A DNA stretch of 64,000 nucleotides from a virus, in the IMG/VR virus record IMGVR_UViG_3300035670_000091. The stretch is one strand, 5' to 3'. Position numbers and translations under genes: made by a program. The notes beneath the pieces were generated by a model. That model had not been told where the DNA came from. It saw only the letters and a program-made list of their open reading frames with translations, and ran no database searches. How positions within the stretch are numbered: the stretch's first letter is position 1; each line of letters begins with the position of its first letter. Positions 4,654 to 64,000 of the stretch are shown here, piece by piece.

Positions 4654-5892
4654 CTATCCTTCCTTTGCGATGCCCTGGAAGTCTGGAACTCGGCTAGCAG
4701 AAATGCTGACCACAGAAGACAGAGGCACCATTCGGTTGTCAAATAAAGAGTGAGTAATGTCAATGCTGTTGATGACTACTAGGTACCGCATTGACTTCCC
4801 GATGTGTAGCTCAACAAGTCGACCAATCAAAAAGCCTAGGTCTGCAGTAGTTCCACGGAACTGGGTGTTCATTTCAAATCCAACAACAGTCTTGAACAAG
4901 TACTCAATGTCATACATAGTTCCAAGCTTGTGGATTTTAGCTAGTTCTTCAGTTGCCCCTGCTGTCGCTGCAGAGCCGTAGACCTGCTCAATAGTTAGGT
5001 TGTCCCTTAGCGAACCGTCTGACCTGATGTACTGGAAGTCGTGCATGCGGTTCAGCAAAATGGAGAACCCAATAGCTCCAGAAGTCCCTGTGTCAGGCAT
5101 AACTTTGACAGGAGAAGCCACGTACTTCATGTAATCAACAGCTGCAGTTCCAGACACACTCATCGTGATGGATTGAGGGTTGTATAGGAACTGGAATCCG
5201 TACTTATTCATGTTGCTGAAGTTAGACACTGTAGCGATGTCGTTTGCACTAGCAGCGTCTACACCAGCAAAGATGTCGTTGAAGTAGTTAGTCTTTGGGA
5301 TGTAAGTCTGAATCATTCCCTTGCTAGCTTGGCTCGTAGTCCACAGCTGTAGGGCGTCCGTTACACGGGCAGGGGTGTTGTTGATGTACATAGTCTTGTC
5401 AACAACTCCGCCTCTTCCTACTAAACCTACTTTTCCGTTGTCCATCAGACTGATGTTTCCAAAGTAAGCGTCTTTTACTCCACCAATGTTGTAAGTAACT
5501 GGCTTACCTGCAGCGTTGCCAGGGTCAACCGTAGGAGCAGCAGGAGTACCGCCTTCTTTGGCAGAGATAGTTGCTTGCGCAGCAGCGATGTCGCTCGTTG
5601 CTTTAGAGATGTCAGTCTGTAGGTTAGTGCGCTGAGTAGATTTAGACGCACGCTCTTCTGCAAGCACAGCTAGTTGAGCATTAATCTTTGCAATCTCAGC
5701 TTCGGTAGCCGCTCTTTGTGCAGTAGTTAGGTTAGTTGCCAGAGCGCTCTCTAGCCCCACCTTCTCTGTCTTTAAGTTAGCAATCTGGTTATCTAGATTT
5801 CTCAGCTCTAAGTTCAGAGTGGTTACCTGCTCTCTAGCAGCAACAAGTGCTGTAGAGCCTAGAAATGACCGCCAGTCAGTAGCTACTACCAT
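4654..5892 (-). CDS. Putative tail tube initiator/baseplate protein with N-terminal coiled coil
   Basis: FQFLYNPQSITMS motif of tube-initiator-like proteins; located between tape measure and LysM genes. Confidence 0.55.
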   Translation of the reverse strand: MVVATDWRSFLGSTALVAAREQVTTLNLELRNLDNQIANLKTEKVGLESALATNLTTAQRAATEAEIAKINAQLAVLAEERASKSTQRTNLQTDISKATSDIAAAQATISAKEGGTPAAPTVDPGNAAGKPVTYNIGGVKDAYFGNISLMDNGKVGLVGRGGVVDKTMYINNTPARVTDALQLWTTSQASKGMIQTYIPKTNYFNDIFAGVDAASANDIATVSNFSNMNKYGFQFLYNPQSITMSVSGTAAVDYMKYVASPVKVMPDTGTSGAIGFSILLNRMHDFQYIRSDGSLRDNLTIEQVYGSAATAGATEELAKIHKLGTMYDIEYLFKTVVGFEMNTQFRGTTADLGFLIGRLVELHIGKSMRYLVVINSIDITHSLFDNRMVPLSSVVSISASRVPDFQGIAKEG

Positions 5893-56770: not shown

Positions 56771-57325
56771 TCAGACTAAAGATTTCAAATACTCAAACAC
56801 CAAAAGGTGCCTTTTTGCGTCCCACTCTGCGTCGTGCGGCTTGTAGTCGTCTACTGCAGCGTGCGCACGGTTCATCGAGTCGCTCTTCCACGTCTCAAAA
56901 TTTTTGCCATCCTTGCCGTGGAACAACCACATCATCCCGTTTAGCTCGGCGGTCCGCCTGGACAGCAGCGCATACGTCTTTGGCAACTGCATTTTGATAA
57001 ATGGCAGGTCGAACCCCGTTATGTTGAATCCGACAGGCACATTTTTCTCTCTACGCTTGGGGTGAGCGCCCCTGTCAATCAGCCACTGGTGCAGTTCGGT
57101 GTCAACGCTATCCTGAGAACGCCCCTGCTGTATGACTGTCTCGTACGAAATGCCGTGCACCGCTGCCGCTCTGGCCTCCCAGGTCATCTCGCCAGGGTTG
57201 ATAAGCCAGCCTTGGGAGTCAATTTGGCCATCTGGCAGTCTGACGGCTACGCCAATCTGGATGAGTCGGCCGCCCTCGGCCAAATTTGGCGTACTCATCT
57301 CGCCGTCAATCCCAATAAATAGCAT
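56771..57325 (-). CDS. DEDDh 3'-5' exonuclease (DnaQ/oligoribonuclease-like)
   Basis: FIGIDGEMS, GFN.TGFDLPFI, HDAEWDA. Confidence 0.88.
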   Translation of the reverse strand: MLFIGIDGEMSTPNLAEGGRLIQIGVAVRLPDGQIDSQGWLINPGEMTWEARAAAVHGISYETVIQQGRSQDSVDTELHQWLIDRGAHPKRREKNVPVGFNITGFDLPFIKMQLPKTYALLSRRTAELNGMMWLFHGKDGKNFETWKSDSMNRAHAAVDDYKPHDAEWDAKRHLLVFEYLKSLV

Positions 57326-57331
57326 CCGACA

Positions 57332-57340
57332 AGGGTACCA
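57332..57340 (-). promoter_or_regulatory. Extended -10 promoter for a leaderless mRNA
   Basis: TGG-TACCCT-N6-ATG. Confidence 0.65.
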
Positions 57341-58219
57341 AACGGCAGGGGCGCTGTCAGGATAGCCGTCAGGCGTCCGACAGGGGGGGAAAAAGTGACT
57401 AAAGTGACCAAAGATAACGATTTGGTAACGATGACTGCGCTAGTTGTGGCGATTTTCGTGCTATGGCACAAAAAACTGCGGATTCCGCACTGTTTTGGGC
57501 CTTAAAACGTCATTTTTCGTGCGTTAGCACAGATTTTGCCACGATAAGCGTGGCTGGACGTCGGCTACTGCCTCAGAAAGTAGACGTGACCTGGGTGTTT
57601 CACCTGGGGGGAACTTTGTGGCAGCGTCGCCTAACCCTCCCCCCCTTGCTGACGGCTGTCTACCCCCCCTTGACGGCCGTCAGGCATCCGTCACCACCCT
57701 GCCCCCTGACTCGCAGTCAGGTGGCACACCCCTGCAACCCGCTCCACAGCTGGGCTGACGGCCTGCTCGGTGGCACACCCGATGGCGGGCCAGCCCGACC
57801 ACCCCTGCCACCCCTGCCAAGGTGGCCAGTTCGGCTACTGCTGGGCCAGCTGGTCGGCCTGTGTGGGAGCCACCAGACCACCACTACCACCCCCCTGCTG
57901 TTACCAGCTACGAGGCCAGCCAGCGACCCACTGAGACCAGCAGGCCAGCCCAGCCAGTGGGTGTGTCTCTCTCTCTCCTCTGGAGCCTCTACAGGACCTC
58001 ATGGACCCTGCTCCCGACCAAGGGGGGAGGACCCCCCTGAGACCCCCCCGAAGGCCATGTGGCAGGGGCGCTTCTAGGCCAGCCCTACGGACGGCTAACG
58101 GCCGTTGTTACCAAACTGTTACAAACGCCGACAACCCAGTGCTGGTGCGGGTTGTGGGCCATCCCGACACGCCCAACGGACAGACGTGTTGGACTTTCCA
58201 ACACAGCTGTGCTTTACTG

Positions 58220-58830
58220 GTTCCTGTCGGCGGTAGGGCAACCGAGTCGGCAGGGCCCTCAGCCCCCCGAGAGGGGGGCGGGGGCACCACCCGAAACTTC
58301 ACAACTCCACAGCAGACTTGCAAAACCCCAGCTGTATGGCTGGCACTGGCGCATCGCTTCGGTGCGTTGCTTGCGGACACCCTCGGCCATCGGCCACCGT
58401 CCGCCTCTCTCGGCAACGCCTCTACCGCACAGCGGTCACGCCCCAGTCCCAAACCGCAGTGGCAACACCGTAAACGACCCCTGTCAGGGCAACGTGATAC
58501 CCACTCTGCGGAGTGGCGGTGAGTAGCCTGTAGGGAGGATGCTCGATACCAACCATGTGAAACGTTGGCGGTGTGCACTGCGTGCCGAGTAGGGACTGGT
58601 AATCCCAACGCAGTCAGTATGAACGACCAAGTAGGGCTTCGGCCCAAGTGCCATCTGCTTCAAGGCTCAGCCAGTGTCCCGCAGGAGGGACGGTCGTGAC
58701 AGTTACCCCATCAGTCTTTGGTGCAGGGGCGCTTCGGTGTCCCTGCCCACTGATAGGCACAGGGGGGCAACCCCCCTGAGACCCCCCCTTGTCTCGCCTC
58801 CCTGTGCTTACCAGTGGCTGTGCCACTATC
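58220..58830 (+). ncRNA. Candidate large structured RNA / 5' leader, family not identified
   Basis: At least 10 stems readable by eye, including two C(UUCG)G and two GNRA loops and nested multiloops. Confidence 0.55.
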
Positions 58831-58851
58831 CGACACGACTAAGGAGAAACC

Positions 58852-59079
58852 ATGTTCAAGTTCCACTTCACCGCCAACACCCCGACCCGTAAGCCAACCC
58901 GCTACGGTTGGGTTCCAAACGTGGAGGGCTGGGTGTTCGCTCAGTCCATCGACCACGCCGAGGGCCTGCTACAGGCCAAGGGCTGGAGGCGCATCAGCCT
59001 GACCCGCTACAACAAGGACACCGAGTTCCAGCCACACTGGGCCACCGAAGGGTGCGACTGGGTGGAGGTGAACGCCTAA
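58852..59079 (+). CDS. Hypothetical protein (75 aa)
   Basis: TAAGGAG RBS. Confidence 0.8.
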   Translation: MFKFHFTANTPTRKPTRYGWVPNVEGWVFAQSIDHAEGLLQAKGWRRISLTRYNKDTEFQPHWATEGCDWVEVNA

Positions 59080-59083
59080 CCAA

Positions 59084-59141
59084 GGTCGAAACCGAGCTCC
59101 CCCCAGCTCGGTCTGCCAGTCATGCTGGCACTGACGAGACC
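59084..59141 (+). ncRNA. Type II hammerhead ribozyme 1 (predicted cleavage 59113/59114)
   Basis: GGTC-GAAA-stem III ACCGAGCT/AGCTCGGT-C-stem I TGCCAG/CTGGCA-CTGACGA-GACC. Confidence 0.93.
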
Positions 59142-59174
59142 GTATCCAATCCGACTCAACTAAGGAGAAGCACC

Positions 59175-59303
59175 ATGGGACTACAAGCTAAGTTCGAAGA
59201 CGGCACCGAGGTGTTCGTCACCATCACCCCTGACCTGTATTCCGAGACCCTGACGGCCCTTATCAAGGCGGGCGCTGTCTCAGTGGATTACATCGCCCTG
59301 TGA
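59175..59303 (+). CDS. 42-aa protein MGLQAKFEDGTEVFVTITPDLYSETLTALIKAGAVSVDYIAL
   Basis: TAAGGAG RBS; sits between the two hammerheads. Confidence 0.75.
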   Translation: MGLQAKFEDGTEVFVTITPDLYSETLTALIKAGAVSVDYIAL

Positions 59304-59307
59304 CCAA

Positions 59308-59363
59308 GGTCGAAACAGTGGGCCACCCCACTGTCTGCTGGTTAGGCCAGCACTGACGAGACC
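59308..59363 (+). ncRNA. Type II hammerhead ribozyme 2 (predicted cleavage 59335/59336)
   Basis: GGTC-GAAA-stem III ACAGTGGG/CCCACTGT-C-stem I TGCTGG/CCAGCA-CTGACGA-GACC. Confidence 0.93.
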
Positions 59364-59403
59364 GTCAGCCATCACCAATCCGACACGACTAAGGAGACAA
59401 CCC

Positions 59404-60774
59404 ATGTTCGGAGTAATCATTCAGCACACTGGCGCATCGGCATCCGAGCCAGCCCAGACCCTGCTCGTCCCATTCAACGGTGCCACGCTGGTGTTCCAGC
59501 GTGACGGCGTTGGCAAGCGTGGCTCAGCAGGAGCGTGGCGCAGGGAGCCTAGCCCTAGCCTCGCCAGCACCAAGGTCATTGGAGCCCCAGTGGCCGTCCG
59601 TCTGACAGAGTCAGACATCGACACCCTCGGTATCCACGAGACCAACCCAGCCATCCTGCCGAACGTCCTGTTCCAGAAGGCTGACCGCAAGGTCCGCAAG
59701 TTCACGTCCGTCACCAGCCACGCTGTGGCCGAGGTCGTGGCCGAGATTGACAAGAGCCTGTCCGTCGACCCATCAGGCGCAGGCCTGTCCCGCTTCGACG
59801 GCCGTCGTGTGCTCATTGACACCCCGAGCATCAAGGTCGTGGCCCCTGCTCCTGTCGTAGCTCCTACGGCTCCAGCTCCTGTGGCATCGGTGCCCGCAAC
59901 AAACCATGCGCCATCCGAGGTCCAGTGGGCCAGCCTCACCGTCCCACAGCTGTCCGACGTGGCCAGCTACCGAGTCCGCACCAACCTGCTCGGTGGCACC
60001 GTCTCGGAGGTCGACGTGTTCGACAAGTGCCGAGCATCCCAGCGCACCGTCTCCATCGTCGGCCACGCTGGCACTGGCAAGACTTCGTCCGTCACCCACT
60101 ACAGCGCACTGCGTGGCCTGCCACTGGTAGTCCTCGAGTGTGACATCGCTCTGGACGAGACCCAGACCGAGGGCACCTACATCCCCACTGGCAACGGCAA
60201 CGAGCTGGTGTGGGCCTACAGCGCTCTGGCCACAGCCATCCGTCAGCCGTCCGTCATTCTGCTCAACGAGCTGTCCCGACTAGCACCCAAGAACGCCTCC
60301 CTGTTCTTGTCCCTGCTGGCCGAGCGCCGTCTGATTGTCGGTCAGCGCCAAGGCGAGGTTATCAACGTCCACCCTGAGTGCCTGATTGTGGCTGACATGA
60401 ACCCAATCGGTTACTCGGGTGTGAGCAAGCAGGACCAAGCCCTGCTCGACCGCTTCAAGTTCGCCGTCACCTACGAATACGACCTAGACATCGACCGCAT
60501 CTGGTGCAAGTCTGAGTCGTTCCTGCGTGAGGTCGTTCAGCACTGGCGCAACAACCAGCAGGCTGACCCAAGTGCCACGCCGTTCAGCCACCGCCTCACC
60601 GAGGCGTTCAGCTGGGCTGTGAGCAACTTCGGGCTCAAGCCAGCAGTGCTCCAGTTGCTGGAGCGCTTCCAGCCAACCGAGCGTGACGTTCTCAAGCTCA
60701 CCATTTCCAAGTCGGCCACCGAAATCGCCAGCGAGTTTGGCGTGGACGTGGACGGCATCGACACCCTGCTCTAA
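59404..60774 (+). CDS. MoxR-type AAA+ ATPase (CobS/CbbQ-like)
   Basis: IVGHAGTGKTS Walker A, VILLNELSR Walker B variant, ADMNP.GYSG, ALLDRF arginine finger. Confidence 0.88.
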   Translation: MFGVIIQHTGASASEPAQTLLVPFNGATLVFQRDGVGKRGSAGAWRREPSPSLASTKVIGAPVAVRLTESDIDTLGIHETNPAILPNVLFQKADRKVRKFTSVTSHAVAEVVAEIDKSLSVDPSGAGLSRFDGRRVLIDTPSIKVVAPAPVVAPTAPAPVASVPATNHAPSEVQWASLTVPQLSDVASYRVRTNLLGGTVSEVDVFDKCRASQRTVSIVGHAGTGKTSSVTHYSALRGLPLVVLECDIALDETQTEGTYIPTGNGNELVWAYSALATAIRQPSVILLNELSRLAPKNASLFLSLLAERRLIVGQRQGEVINVHPECLIVADMNPIGYSGVSKQDQALLDRFKFAVTYEYDLDIDRIWCKSESFLREVVQHWRNNQQADPSATPFSHRLTEAFSWAVSNFGLKPAVLQLLERFQPTERDVLKLTISKSATEIASEFGVDVDGIDTLL

Positions 60775-60793
60775 TCCGAAAGCGAGTTCTATC

Positions 60794-62779
60794 GTGAGCA
60801 TCCAGTTCGGCCTCAACCAAGAGGCAATCCAGCACGACAGTGCCATCCGCATGACTCAGGTCGTGCAACAGTTCGCCACCATGTTCGTTGGTCGCAAGGT
60901 CGGTGTTCGCTTGTCGAACAACACCGTTGCGCCAGCATGGTCGACCAGCAACACCATCGAGTTCAGCGAGCCTCAGCTCCCTGACCTACAGACTGCTGAC
61001 GGCGTGCTATCCGTTAGGGGCCTGACGTTCCACGAGCTGAGCCACATCCTGTTCACCCCTCGTGCTCAGTCGGACATCGCCATCTGGGTGCGGGACAACA
61101 GCTACGGCTCAGCGTTCAACGCCCTCGAGGACCAGCGCATCGAGACCCTGATTACCGCTCGGTATGGGGCCCTCAAGCTCTGGCTCACTGGCACCATCGC
61201 CCAGCACCTGTTCCACTCGCCTCAGGCTATCTCGCAGGCGTTCCCGCTGGTTCGTGGTCGCAAGTATCTGCCAGTGGAGCTCCGCAAGCTGGCACGTGAC
61301 CGCTACGCCAACCCGCAGGACATCGACGAGCTCGCCAGCATCATCGACGAGTATCGCCTCCTGCTGTTCCCTCAGGACACCGAGCGTGCCAAGCCACTTA
61401 TCGCACGCTACGCCGAGCTGGTCCGCAACCTGCCTGAGCAGGGTGCTGGCATGCCTGACCCATACGGCCACAGCTCACGCCCTGACTCCGAGCACCACTC
61501 CAGCATCAAGGACAAGCCACTCAGCAAGTCCGAGCAGGAGCGCACTCGTGAGCGTGCCAAGGCACAGGACGAGCAGGTCGAGGACGAGGACGAGTTCAAC
61601 TGGGGCAACCCTGACCAGCAGGACGAGGACCGCAACAAACCATCCGACACCGACGAGCAGGACACTGACTCTGACGGCCAGCCATCGGACAGCGAGTCCG
61701 ACAGCACCGACTCTGACGAGTCCGCATCCGACAGCGACAGCGACTCCGACAGCGAGTCCGACAGCACCGACAGCTCCGACAGCGACTCCGACATCGACGG
61801 CGAGCCAACGGACAACGTGTCCGACAGCTACGGTGACGGACAGTCCGACAACGACCACGAGTCCGACAGCACCGAGACCAGCTCTGGTTCCGACCTGAGC
61901 AAGGCCAACGCTGAGGTTCGTGAGCTCATGGAGGACGTGCTCGACTCGCTCAAGCAGTCGCTCGGTTCAGCCATCGCTGACGAGGTGGCCAAGTATGGCG
62001 GTGACGTAGTCCTGCAGGGCATCCCTGCCAAGACCCCACGTCCTGCCTACAACTACCCTGAGGTTGTCTCAGGTGGCGGTGTTCAGGCATCCGTTGCGTT
62101 CAAGCAGGAGCTCCTCAAGCTCAAGCAGGAGCACGACCCAAGCTGGGACCGCAAGGTTCGCAAAGGCCGTCTCAACCCACTGCGTTACGCTCAGGGCCAC
62201 GACATCGACGAGCTGTTCGACAAGTTCGAGCATGGTCGTGACGATGCTGTGGACATCGAGGCTGTAATTCTGCTGGACACCAGCGGTTCAATGTCAGGTG
62301 ACAACATCCGTCGGGCCAACGAGTCCCTGTGGGGTCTCAAGTCCGCTCTGGATGCCGTCAACGCCTCCTGCACTGCGGTGACGTTCAGTAGCGATGCCAG
62401 ACTGCTCTACTCAGCAGACGAGCGTGTGAGCTCCATCATGCGCTTCGCCCCTGCTCAGGGTGGCACTGACCCGCTCGAGGCCCTCCAGTATGCCAACCAC
62501 GTGCTGGCCACCAGCGACCGCAAGGTCAAGGTGCTGTTCGTCATTACTGACGGCGCATGGAACGGTGACGTGGAGCGTGCTGAGCGCATCATCAAGAACC
62601 TGCGAGACGGTGGCGTTGTCACTGCCTTGTCCTACCTTGGTTACGTTGGCGAGTCACTGGCCAACGTTGACCGCCACGAGTGCGAAGCGGTGGCTCACGT
62701 CACCAATGCTTCGGACCTACTCGAGGTCGGCAGGTCGGTAGTCAAGCTGGCTATCGCTCGCAACCTAGTCAACGCTTAG
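60794..62779 (+). CDS. vWA domain protein (CobT-like) with N-terminal HExxH domain and acidic Ser/Asp linker
   Basis: FHELSH...NALEDQRIE; LLDTSGSM, GGTD, ITDG MIDAS; in-frame GTG 60794 avoids overlap with the ATPase. Confidence 0.88.
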   Translation: MSIQFGLNQEAIQHDSAIRMTQVVQQFATMFVGRKVGVRLSNNTVAPAWSTSNTIEFSEPQLPDLQTADGVLSVRGLTFHELSHILFTPRAQSDIAIWVRDNSYGSAFNALEDQRIETLITARYGALKLWLTGTIAQHLFHSPQAISQAFPLVRGRKYLPVELRKLARDRYANPQDIDELASIIDEYRLLLFPQDTERAKPLIARYAELVRNLPEQGAGMPDPYGHSSRPDSEHHSSIKDKPLSKSEQERTRERAKAQDEQVEDEDEFNWGNPDQQDEDRNKPSDTDEQDTDSDGQPSDSESDSTDSDESASDSDSDSDSESDSTDSSDSDSDIDGEPTDNVSDSYGDGQSDNDHESDSTETSSGSDLSKANAEVRELMEDVLDSLKQSLGSAIADEVAKYGGDVVLQGIPAKTPRPAYNYPEVVSGGGVQASVAFKQELLKLKQEHDPSWDRKVRKGRLNPLRYAQGHDIDELFDKFEHGRDDAVDIEAVILLDTSGSMSGDNIRRANESLWGLKSALDAVNASCTAVTFSSDARLLYSADERVSSIMRFAPAQGGTDPLEALQYANHVLATSDRKVKVLFVITDGAWNGDVERAERIIKNLRDGGVVTALSYLGYVGESLANVDRHECEAVAHVTNASDLLEVGRSVVKLAIARNLVNA

Positions 62780-62786
62780 TTGACTC

Positions 62787-62827
62787 AGCCCTGACGGACA
62801 GCAGTTGTCTCCCTGTCCGTCAGGGCT
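62787..62827 (+). terminator. 15-bp perfect hairpin (terminator or processing site, no U-tract)
   Basis: AGCCCTGACGGACAG / CTGTCCGTCAGGGCT. Confidence 0.55.
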
Positions 62828-62885
62828 CCGCCACAAACCATCCAAACTTCAAACCCTCAACATCCACTTCAACGTTAGGAACATC

Positions 62886-63527
62886 ATGCTAAGCAAGCAG
62901 ATTCTCGCACTACCCCTCGGCACCGAGCTGGTTGTATCCAGCCGTTACCTTGGTCACCGAGTTGCCCACAAGGACAACAAGACCCCTGAGCGCATCAAGG
63001 AGCACGATGCTCACGTCGGCACGCTCTACGCTTACGACAACTACGAGGAGTCCCACTACCGCTCCAACACCGACCACCACTCGGACTGGACCAAGACCAC
63101 CACTGACCGCACCAAGCGATTCCTGCTCAAGTTCAAGGACACCGCAGGCTCCGACGTGTGGGCCATCATCCCTGTGCAGGACATCATCGCCACCAAGGTT
63201 GAGGTTGAGCCACGCTGGGCACAGGAGCGCACTGAGCGGGCCATCGCTCAGGCAGAGGCTGACCGCATCGCACAAGCCCAGCAGGCCATCGAGGAGAAGC
63301 GCAAGCTGACCGAAGAGAGTGTCAAAGAGGCCGTCCACACCAGCCTGCTCGAGCTCTTCGGTGCTGACTACTCAAACAAGGGTGTCCGCATTGGCTACAT
63401 CCGCACCTACAGCAGGGTGAACGCTGGTCCTGACGGCCAGCTCACAACCAAGCTGGAGAACGGTGGAGACATCGAAATCCCTGTGGACCTATTCCTTCGC
63501 ATGGTCGAGCGCTTCGCCAGCGAGTAA
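62886..63527 (+). CDS. Hypothetical protein
   Basis: TTAGGA RBS before ATG 62886; C-ending codon bias like neighbours. Confidence 0.75.
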   Translation: MLSKQILALPLGTELVVSSRYLGHRVAHKDNKTPERIKEHDAHVGTLYAYDNYEESHYRSNTDHHSDWTKTTTDRTKRFLLKFKDTAGSDVWAIIPVQDIIATKVEVEPRWAQERTERAIAQAEADRIAQAQQAIEEKRKLTEESVKEAVHTSLLELFGADYSNKGVRIGYIRTYSRVNAGPDGQLTTKLENGGDIEIPVDLFLRMVERFASE

Positions 63528-63535
63528 CACCAACA

Positions 63536-63633
63536 GCCAGACCAGCAGACACCGAGGTGCGAGTCCTCGGCTGGCACGAGTGCCGAACCAATCAGTAGGC
63601 CCTACAGACCTGAGCACGTCGCTAAACGGCTCA
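63536..63633 (+). ncRNA. Candidate structured intergenic RNA with T-loop-like hairpin
   Basis: CCGAGG-TGCGAGT-CCTCGG plus three further stems. Confidence 0.45.
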
Positions 63634-63660
63634 CCCATCCGACAACACTAAGGAGCACCA

Positions 63661-64000
63661 ATGACCACCACGTTCAAGCCAGCTGGCGCACCAGCCAGCA
63701 ACCAATACGGCCAGTTCACTGTCCGTTACGCATCACCTGCCCAACAGCGATACATCCGTCAGCTGTTGGACGAACGCCAGCACGACTTCGGGGAGGACTT
63801 CGACCCAGCAACCGTCAACGTGCAGAACGCATCGCACGTCATCGACCAATTGCTACGGACACCTGTCAGAGCCGACAAGGTTGTTCCAGCATCCGACAAG
63901 CAGTTGGCATTCATCGAGTCGCTGAAGACCCAGCGTCAAGGTGCGGTCCAGTTCCTGACGGACTACCTTGCCCTACACAAGTCCGACAGCTTGTCAGCCC
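63661..64000 (+). CDS. Hypothetical protein, truncated by window end (not in ORF track)
   Basis: MTTTFKPAGAP...; internal repeat ASPAQQRYIRQL / ASDKQLAFIESL; TAAGGAG RBS. Confidence 0.75.
   Translation, partial: MTTTFKPAGAPASNQYGQFTVRYASPAQQRYIRQLLDERQHDFGEDFDPATVNVQNASHVIDQLLRTPVRADKVVPASDKQLAFIESLKTQRQGAVQFLTDYLALHKSDSLSA

Follow-up and report, generated by a model that had tools for sequence, protein, structure and literature searches.

The segment at positions 58220-58850 of a 64,000-nucleotide (nt) stretch of viral DNA (IMG/VR virus record IMGVR_UViG_3300035670_000091; the whole stretch is called the window) immediately precedes a rightward operon that encodes a MoxR-like ATPase and a vWA protein. 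We regard it as a genuine, structured RNA that is conserved in relatives and belongs to no known family, and as a lineage-specific operon leader rather than a new giant class of non-coding RNA (ncRNA). We hold with moderate confidence that it is an untranslated, cis-acting 5′ leader on the plus strand of this operon, whose riboswitch-like conserved core would bind a factor. The original prediction, made by inspection of the window, had proposed a densely paired RNA of ~600 nt: the ~290 nt between 58545 and 58830 are well supported by comparison, whereas 58286-58545 have a poor consensus fold.

Related uncultured phages, found in metagenomes from lakes and elsewhere, have kept the stretch; their loci carry L numbers here. 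Their ATPase homologues form a graded series, from 89% down to ~33% identity, and contigs that reach upstream share one layout: a minus-strand operon, a gap of 1.3-1.8 kb and a plus-strand operon. L120/L121, L123-L125 and L126/L127 align across the entire gap at 76-78% identity, L128 and L129 over part of it, and nhmmer extended the homology to L138, L140/L141 and L142. Searches of IMG/VR with the single ATPase or the protein of the first open reading frame (ORF) returned nothing, and an alignment of ATPases was used as the query instead.

Comparison of these lineages showed a conserved set of about twelve predicted helices in the 3′ 290 nt (Table 1). A covariance model of 58545-58710 with 28 pairs, named R1, has one full-length match each in the window, L120, L123, L124, L126, L128, L129 and L142 (133-155 bits). 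In its alignment 93.9% of cells pair and 15 of the 28 pairs change on both sides; none of 500 shuffles reached the observed level, and partners slid by 1-3 columns were only 24-45% paired. The fold is retained by compensatory changes across lineages whose ATPases are 45-83% identical, and in L142, with an ATPase only 45% identical to that of the window, the core is still kept with fully compensated stems. Its junctions and loops are marked by near-invariant nucleotides: GAGUAGCCUG, CGAUAC, GCGGUGUGC, GCCGAG, CAAGUAG, CAAGG-UCAGCC and ACAGGAG. A possible long-range helix between the conserved block at 58518-58547 and 58312-21 showed almost no covariation. The optional hairpin at 58592-58606 closes a loop of 7 nt in which position 2 is U and positions 6-7 are A; the loop resembles an anticodon loop (GGU).

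The structure continues into domain IV (58706-58832), where only the five closest sequences align. Here 94.6% of cells pair, against 36-55% when partners are slid, and there are five compensatory pairs, three in P9 and two in P8. Pairing reaches 100% in P7 and 96.7% in P8, where the G29-U40 pair is invariant; the P12 stem never changes, so there is no covariation in P12. Hairpins at the position of P7/P8 are also seen, by eye in the alignment, in L128/L129 and L142, and the P9-P11 part is rearranged in L128/L129 and replaced by other hairpins in L142. The RNA of the original prediction does have homologues with covariation, as compensatory changes in both the R1 core and domain IV. A CCUCC at 58797-801 could pair with the Shine-Dalgarno (SD) sequence, without covariation. 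A unit within domain IV, G6-N3/4-C6-UGAGA-C7, is duplicated, with copies at 58021-58049 and 58762-58788 that are 89% identical. A G5-6 hairpin followed by N5 and C5-7 is kept in relatives, even in the AT-rich L143, and the order of its purine and pyrimidine runs (G6/C6/C7) would allow alternative pairing or a triple helix.

Every stem listed in the original prediction is present where it was placed, but not all are conserved: those at 58501-16 and 58592-606 are insertions in some relatives, and that at 58262-79 lies in a length-variable stretch. Folding beyond chance was borne out. The plus strand of 58220-58850 (631 nt) has a folding energy of -286.5 kcal/mol, and its z relative to dinucleotide shuffles is -4.5 (minus strand z = -2.4). 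From the putative start to the start codon, six lineages gave plus-strand z values of -2.9, -3.1, -2.9, -4.1, -4.3 and -2.05 and minus-strand values of -1.8, -1.2, -2.5, -1.7, -1.0 and -2.1, the plus strand being the stronger in five of the six.

Table 1 Features of the leader, the rightward operon and the upstream gap, in window coordinates.
Feature	Position	Strand	Remarks
Older, deeply conserved control module	57561-58100	+	upstream of the promoter; homology reaches L138, L140, L142, L143
GGCTACTG, two copies	57563-57570 and 57833-57840	+	270 nt apart
ACCTGGGGGG	within 57561-58100	+	
ACCACCAGACC, CTGTTACCAG, G6-hairpin + C7 unit	within 57561-58100	+	
Imperfect inverted repeat centred on TGACT-CGC-AGTCA	57708-57720		extended arms hold one mismatch
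Tandem GGTGGC/GATGGC direct repeats, 12-nt period	57769-57788		just upstream of second GGCTACTG
Candidate sigma70-like promoter	58188-58216	+	-35 TTGGAC 58188-93, 17-nt spacer, TGC + -10 TTTACT 58211-16
G/C-rich 5′ hairpins	58224-58290	+	length-variable; include GCCCCCC-GAGA-GGGGGGC 58262-79
C/A-rich unpaired segment	58291-58330	+	conserved; motif CTT(G/C)A(C/T)AACTC(A/C)ACAG, also written CTT(G/C)AYAACTCMACAG
C-rich, G-poor middle	58331-58516	+	weakly structured; GC skew -0.18 to -0.30
Variable hairpin CCACTC/GAGTGG	58501-16	+	deleted in L120, L126, L128
Block GAGUAGCCUG(C/U)AGG...CGAUAC	58518-58547	+	conserved, mostly unpaired; near-invariant in seven lineages
Domain III multi-stem core	58545-58710	+	covariance model R1; conserved junction nucleotides
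P1	58549-53 with 58564-68	+	supported
P2 (ACTGCGT/ACGCAGT 58577-83 with 58608-14)	58574-83 with 58608-16	+	supported
Optional hairpin GGGA-CTGGTAA-TCCC inside P2	58592-606	+	only window, L120, L123/L124
P3 ACGACC/GGTCGT	58623-28 with 58692-97	+	encloses P4, P5, P6; supported
P4 hairpin (GGGC-TTCG-GCCC)	58634-45	+	variable; inside P3
P5	58650-52 with 58664-66	+	short, poorly aligned, only 62% paired
P6 (GTCCC/GGGAC)	58676-80 with 58687-91	+	supported
P7	58712-15 with 58749-52	+	encloses P8
P8, 12-bp hairpin with UUCG loop (ATCAGT/ACTGAT around the UUCG hairpin, 58720-48)	58720-32 with 58737-48	+	invariant G-U pair, 2 compensatory pairs
Three-way junction	58757-58807	+	P9 + P10 + P11
P9 GCACAGGG/CCCTGTGC	58757-64 with 58800-07	+	3 compensatory pairs, 100% paired
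P10 G/C hairpin	58762-76	+	
P11 GAGAC/GUCUC, C7 loop	58778-82 with 58791-95	+	GAGA/UCUC in relatives
P12 terminal hairpin AGUGGC-UGU-GCCACU	58813-27	+	stem invariant, loop varies; five close lineages
Ribosome-binding region AUCCGAC-N5-UAAGGAG + ATG 58852	58828-58854	+	unpaired in comparative structure
First operon ORF (ORF 58852), 75 codons	ATG 58852	+	
Type II hammerhead 1	59084-59151	+	sub-threshold Rfam match
Hammerhead 2	59308-59374	+	sub-threshold Rfam match
MoxR-like AAA_5 (AAA+) ATPase	59404-60774	+	

The segment does not encode protein, in agreement with the original prediction. None of the 15 insertions and deletions (indels) between the window and L120 is a multiple of three, and against L123, L126, L128 and L129 the figure is 4-7 of 22-43, below the chance expectation of one third. 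Substitutions in the gap have no three-base codon periodicity, open frames in the stretch differ between relatives and are not conserved in position, no Pfam or PHROG match was found in it, and in most relatives gene callers placed no gene there. A protein-coding gene was accordingly rejected: no frame is conserved, indels break every frame and codon periodicity is absent. Long open frames do exist on both strands, such as ORFs 58001-58522 (+) and 58108-58647 (-), and could be taken for a decayed or unusual coding region; we find this scarcely credible. The base composition makes stops rare, so that several overlapping phases stay open, and these frames share the unconserved positions, broken frames, lack of periodicity and lack of family matches of the region as a whole. 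Comparison with the neighbouring gene showed that the segment is under purifying selection: gap identities to L120, L123 and L126 are 0.80, 0.79 and 0.78, against third-codon identities of 0.72, 0.64 and 0.59 in the ATPase gene, and the gap is as conserved as the adjacent gene as a whole.

The leader most likely has the plus-strand sense given in the original prediction, judging from the asymmetry of the z values, the UUCG loops closed by C-G, the GNRA loops and the fixed G-U pair; it is also collinear with the operon in every relative. Just upstream, the pattern TTGnAc-N17-(T/C)(T/A)TACT is kept in all aligned lineages, including the distant L138 and L142, while its flanks vary, and we infer that 58188-58216 is a sigma70-type promoter with a start near 58223. 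A second candidate, TTCACA-N17-CAAAAC at 58297, was dropped since relatives have no consistent -10 there. No U-tract terminator was found by sequence scan. At the other end, the last leader hairpin ends one base before the AUCCGAC-N5-UAAGGAG unit, which is also found after both hammerheads of the operon. UGUCGG at 58226-58231, close to where the 5′ end is predicted, has its complement in CCGACA at 58830-58835 in the AUCCGAC motif; GUCGG is kept in the four lineages with AUCCGAC and absent in L128/L129, which lack AUCCGAC, and the pairing has no covariation.

Known families offered no alternative identity, as the original prediction had supposed. We ran cmscan with Rfam 15 on the window at the gathering threshold, on 57300-59500 at E up to 10, and on nine related loci at the gathering threshold. 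At the gathering threshold neither the gap nor any of the nine loci had a match, and at E up to 10 nothing meaningful appeared in the gap. GOLLD, ROOL, OLE, HEARO and raiA were absent from all three sets; known riboswitch classes, cobalamin included, had no match at E up to 10; and group I/II introns, RNase P and tmRNA had no Rfam match, with no interrupted gene flanking the region. ARAGORN called no tRNA or tmRNA gene in 57300-59000. Among self-cleaving ribozymes (hammerhead, twister, pistol, hatchet and others) none lies inside 58220-58850, the only ones being the two hammerheads downstream. The 6C RNA of Actinobacteria (RF01066) has a sub-threshold match outside the segment, at 57649-57707 (25.3 bits against 47, E = 1.3), and membership was rejected: the second hairpin is missing and the score is below threshold. 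C-run loops recur in the leader (58783-89). Our literature search found no description of this leader RNA.

The core is confined to one phage sub-clade. R1 had no match in L138, L140, L141 or L143, nor did it find one in 550 kb of sequence from the 64 IMG/VR relatives at a greater distance. In more distant relatives the long gap persists without the core. GenBank phages gave no blastn match to 57400-59400. The P2 22-mer GCGGTGTGCNCTNCGTGCCGAG had no occurrence in IMG/VR, only L128's own contig and chance coding-sequence matches in a metagenome scan, and four chance matches inside genes in GTDB genomes, so no prophage or host copy was found. ATCCGAC-N5-TAAGGAG occurs at 117 IMG/VR loci, mostly lone unrelated matches, and was set aside.

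This distribution and the setting of the segment bear on the idea, raised in the original prediction, of a discrete and possibly new large ncRNA released together with ORF 58852 by hammerhead 1. The plus-strand operon comprises, in order, a 75-codon ORF, a hammerhead, a 42-codon ORF, a hammerhead, the MoxR-like AAA_5 ATPase and the vWA protein. A free-standing, large ornate RNA like GOLLD or ROOL, freed by hammerhead 1 and acting in trans in particle assembly or in the sequestration of a host factor, would suit the size and pairing density of the segment, its many conserved unpaired nucleotides, and its repeated C-run loops and G-runs, which could make intermolecular contacts; the two downstream hammerheads, both sub-threshold in cmscan (E = 0.002, 29.3 bits against the Rfam threshold of 37), would provide the release. 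The segment bears no mark of a separate RNA gene, however: it has no 3′ end or terminator of its own and runs directly into a ribosome-binding site, and cleavage would leave ORF 58852 attached. In L128 and L142, moreover, the leader directly adjoins the ATPase gene, with no ORF called between. Hammerhead-like DNA was not detected by blastn in L128 or L129, and the L128 and L142 loci had no Rfam match at the gathering threshold. Neither the small ORFs nor the hammerheads therefore appear to be part of the leader element, and release by hammerhead 1 is not a defining feature. Like the GOLLD, ROOL and OLE RNAs (Nature 2025, PMC12286853), the segment is hundreds of nt long, has many helices, is phage-associated and was found by comparison; unlike them it is not a separate gene, has no cmscan similarity to them (or to HEARO) at E up to 10, is well structured over only 290 nt, a smaller supported structure than theirs, and has a very narrow distribution. 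With the domain limited to one sub-clade, a lineage-specific leader fits better than a GOLLD/ROOL-like class, and we consider a free-standing RNA doubtful.

A leader could also be passive, its hairpins doing no more than shielding the message from nucleases in its 5′ part or leaving the ribosome site accessible; it would sense nothing and have no specific partner. The G/C hairpins near the 5′ end suit such a role, as do the turnover of 3′ hairpins between lineages and the hairpin that stands directly before every AUCCGAC-SD unit of the operon, a position held elsewhere by hammerhead stems. Clustered type II hammerheads between phage genes are known (Perreault et al. 2011, PMC3088659), and in the present operon each processed segment likewise restarts with a hairpin and AUCCGAC-N5-UAAGGAG, P12 of the leader occupying the equivalent place; the leader differs in having no hammerhead core or ribozyme-family match and in occurring in L128 and L142 without detected hammerheads. 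The ribosome site, unpaired in the supported fold, is again what a protective leader would predict. Protective hairpins, on the other hand, need no invariant junction or loop nucleotides, and many of those in 58518-58710 are invariant at only 45% ATPase identity; 630 nt is also far beyond the needs of protection. We regard a passive role as a minority possibility.

The cis-acting leader with a factor-binding core accounts for these features in the following way. Transcription would start near 58223 from the conserved sigma70-like promoter, and the leader RNA would act in cis, on the message that carries it. Its conserved core would bind a factor, which may be a small molecule, a protein, or the machinery of transcription or translation. 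Ahead of the core, the C-rich and poorly folded stretch is a plausible Rho entry site, and core and stretch together may set the amount of full-length, stable, translatable operon RNA through read-through, stability or translation, with output provided by the variable 3′ hairpins. Where there is a hammerhead after the first ORF, cleavage would remove leader and ORF together as one RNA, an optional step.

The leader has the general character of a riboswitch-like cis-regulator: a conserved multi-helix core of ~150 nt with invariant junctions and covarying stems, upstream of a gene, then a region that varies between core and start codon, the whole lying immediately before the first gene's ribosome-binding site. 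It departs from riboswitch-type leaders in having no curated family match, visible terminator or anti-SD switch, in its length of ~630 nt with a 300-nt weakly folded part, and in its occurrence in one phage sub-clade only. HK022 put and Bacillus EAR are cis-acting processive antitermination RNAs of 65-120 nt with defined two-stem folds. They too are structured RNAs in the untranslated leader of an early-type operon, upstream of a long polycistronic unit, and C-rich sequence adjoining the leader core could, by analogy, load Rho; we saw no similarity between them and the present leader, for which antitermination would be an analogy only.

Several points weigh against a factor-binding cis-acting leader. 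The R1 alignment was itself fitted to the model, and only ~6 independent lineages carry the core, so that the covariation counts rest on few events. The comparative structure, at -101 to -111 kcal/mol, is not the single-sequence minimum free energy fold (-124), and the 3′ 312 nt alone fold only marginally better than shuffles (z = -1.75), which leaves comparison as the main structural support. Because the SD sequence and ribosome site are not sequestered in the supported fold, no switch mechanism is visible. The promoter candidate has a weak -10 whose second position is not A, and for that reason a consensus scanner did not call it. RNAalifold energies of the forward and reverse-complement alignments are about equal, which makes that strand test uninformative, and the start site, the strand and transcription itself are all deduced from sequence. 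Finally, distant relatives do without the domain, which is therefore not essential to the operon.

In a bolder version of the cis-acting leader, the core at 58518-58710 would serve as the sensor in a cis-regulatory RNA of a new class, which could be a riboswitch, a protein-binding operator or an antitermination element and would gate the MoxR/vWA operon on a host signal in probably actinobacterial phages; the G-runs and C-run loops of the core would make long-range or intermolecular contact. We put this forward tentatively and think it unlikely as a whole.

The 5′ half of the leader (58224-58545) is C-rich with little conserved structure. Its C6/G6 hairpin is kept in the window, L120 (with a 37-nt insertion), L123 and L126 and absent from L128, L129, L138 and L142. 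The motif at 58291-58330 occurs in the window and in all nine close or moderate relatives searched, including L120, L123, L126, L128, L129, L138, L140 and L142, and in similar form in L170, L177 and L188; no pairing partner was found for it. For the middle part, the covariation term of the RNAalifold consensus is positive and many of its pairs are broken in L128/L129; a long-hairpin model for 58331-58460 was rejected on that term, and we do not count the middle part as a defined structure. Two long-range helices from a consensus fold of the whole gap (GGCUACU 57833-39/AGUAGCC 58522-28 and 57601-04/58570-73) were not adopted because they never vary and L138 and L142 have no partner.

The window belongs to a tailed phage, with genes for tail sheath, baseplate, portal and large terminase. 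Its terminase shares 50% identity with the terminases of Streptomyces phages BRock, LuckySocke and Alone3, which makes an actinobacterial host likely; the C7-loop hairpin at 57649-57707, together with this terminase, hints at the same. All genes in 1-57325 lie on the minus strand and the plus-strand operon begins at 58852. The ATPase matches AAA_5 and a PHROG labelled porphyrin biosynthesis, the vWA protein matches CobT_C weakly, and the downstream genes resemble CobS/CobT. G+C is ~0.50 in the minus-strand arm and 0.59-0.63 from ~57000 on (57000-64000 of the window), the gap and rightward operon differing in composition from the structural genes.

Between the two operons, 57326-58851 forms 1.5 kb without a credible gene, a conserved non-coding region that the original prediction had missed; the leader is its last 630 nt and its fast-evolving 3′ end. 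What distant relatives conserve most is 57561-58100, a module common to dozens of phage genomes of 90-100 kb and about 36-63% G+C. GGCTACTG, usually extended as TTCGGCTACTGCC, lies on the plus strand in 48 of the 64 IMG/VR relatives (L155-L218) and on the minus strand in one, the G+C content of these relatives being 36-61%; there are 2-5 copies, the last two 195-280 nt apart, and in distant phages extra GGCTACTGCCT copies lie ~45 nt upstream of plus-strand gene starts, which suggests that GGCTACTG/GGCTACTGCCT is a promoter-type or other strand-specific signal. The two copies of the 12-nt-period repeat change together: GGTGGC/GATGGC in the window, and GATAGC, GGTGAC or GATGAC at the same position elsewhere (L128, L138, L140, L143, L166, L170 and L199 were compared). 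Such concerted change is typical of sites that co-evolve with a DNA-binding protein. At 32-33 nt after ACCTGGGGGG stands a C7 run (57639-57645) in the window clade and a G6-7 run (TTAAnGGTGGGGGG) in L138, L142, L143 and most IMG/VR relatives; an RNA hairpin would not tolerate such a strand flip. GTTACC-N5-GTTAY has only two copies in the window, inverted and 677 nt apart, which flank the module (57414-57429, minus; 58107-58122, plus), and L143 has five tandem GTTATCAG units of the GTTAYC type (5637-5690). An alignment of 42 lineages shows linear motifs in fixed order and spacing with almost no consensus pairing. Taken with the concerted repeats, this suggests protein-binding DNA sites, in a control region or origin.

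A search for GGCTACTG-N27-31-TCACCTGGGGG found one true distant relative (L143), and 11 genome matches showed no further similarity. A small leader peptide starting at CAACCATG of the module was rejected, since neither frame nor start is kept in the window clade. HNH endonuclease genes have been inserted at the 5′ edge of the module, adjoining the first GGCTACTG (~57560-57589), in two separate lineages: L126 (3544-4539) and L129 (4205-4666).

That the module behaves in this way raises the question of whether pairing in the leader is itself a by-product of a DNA element, the 1.5-kb gap being a replication origin or control region and 58220-58850 no functional RNA. The linear motifs at fixed spacing, concerted repeats, GTTAYC repeats and C-run/G-run swap upstream would agree with this, as would the inverted GTTACC-N5-GTTAY pair at 57414 and 58107 and the similar forward and reverse RNAalifold energies. 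The helices of 58545-58830 are nevertheless nested and multi-branched rather than simple palindromes, and they covary while their loops drift; they carry UUCG loops as well as a G-U pair that is fixed and would read C-A in the opposite strand, the fold z is stronger on the plus strand, and no repeated linear motif of the upstream type occurs in 58545-58830. A purely DNA-level role for 58545-58830 is thus unlikely, and an origin or control region without any functional RNA is an improbable account of the leader.

We know of no earlier description of the upstream control hub, and the 1.5-kb gene-free region, as a conserved control hub, may be the more general result. With the leader, the small number of complex phage RNAs gains one of ~290 nt that is supported by covariation, has invariant junctions and is matched by nothing in Rfam 15. 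It lies at the point at which the phage would set the output of an operon for a MoxR-like ATPase and a vWA protein, and may offer a tractable handle on regulation in uncultured phages.

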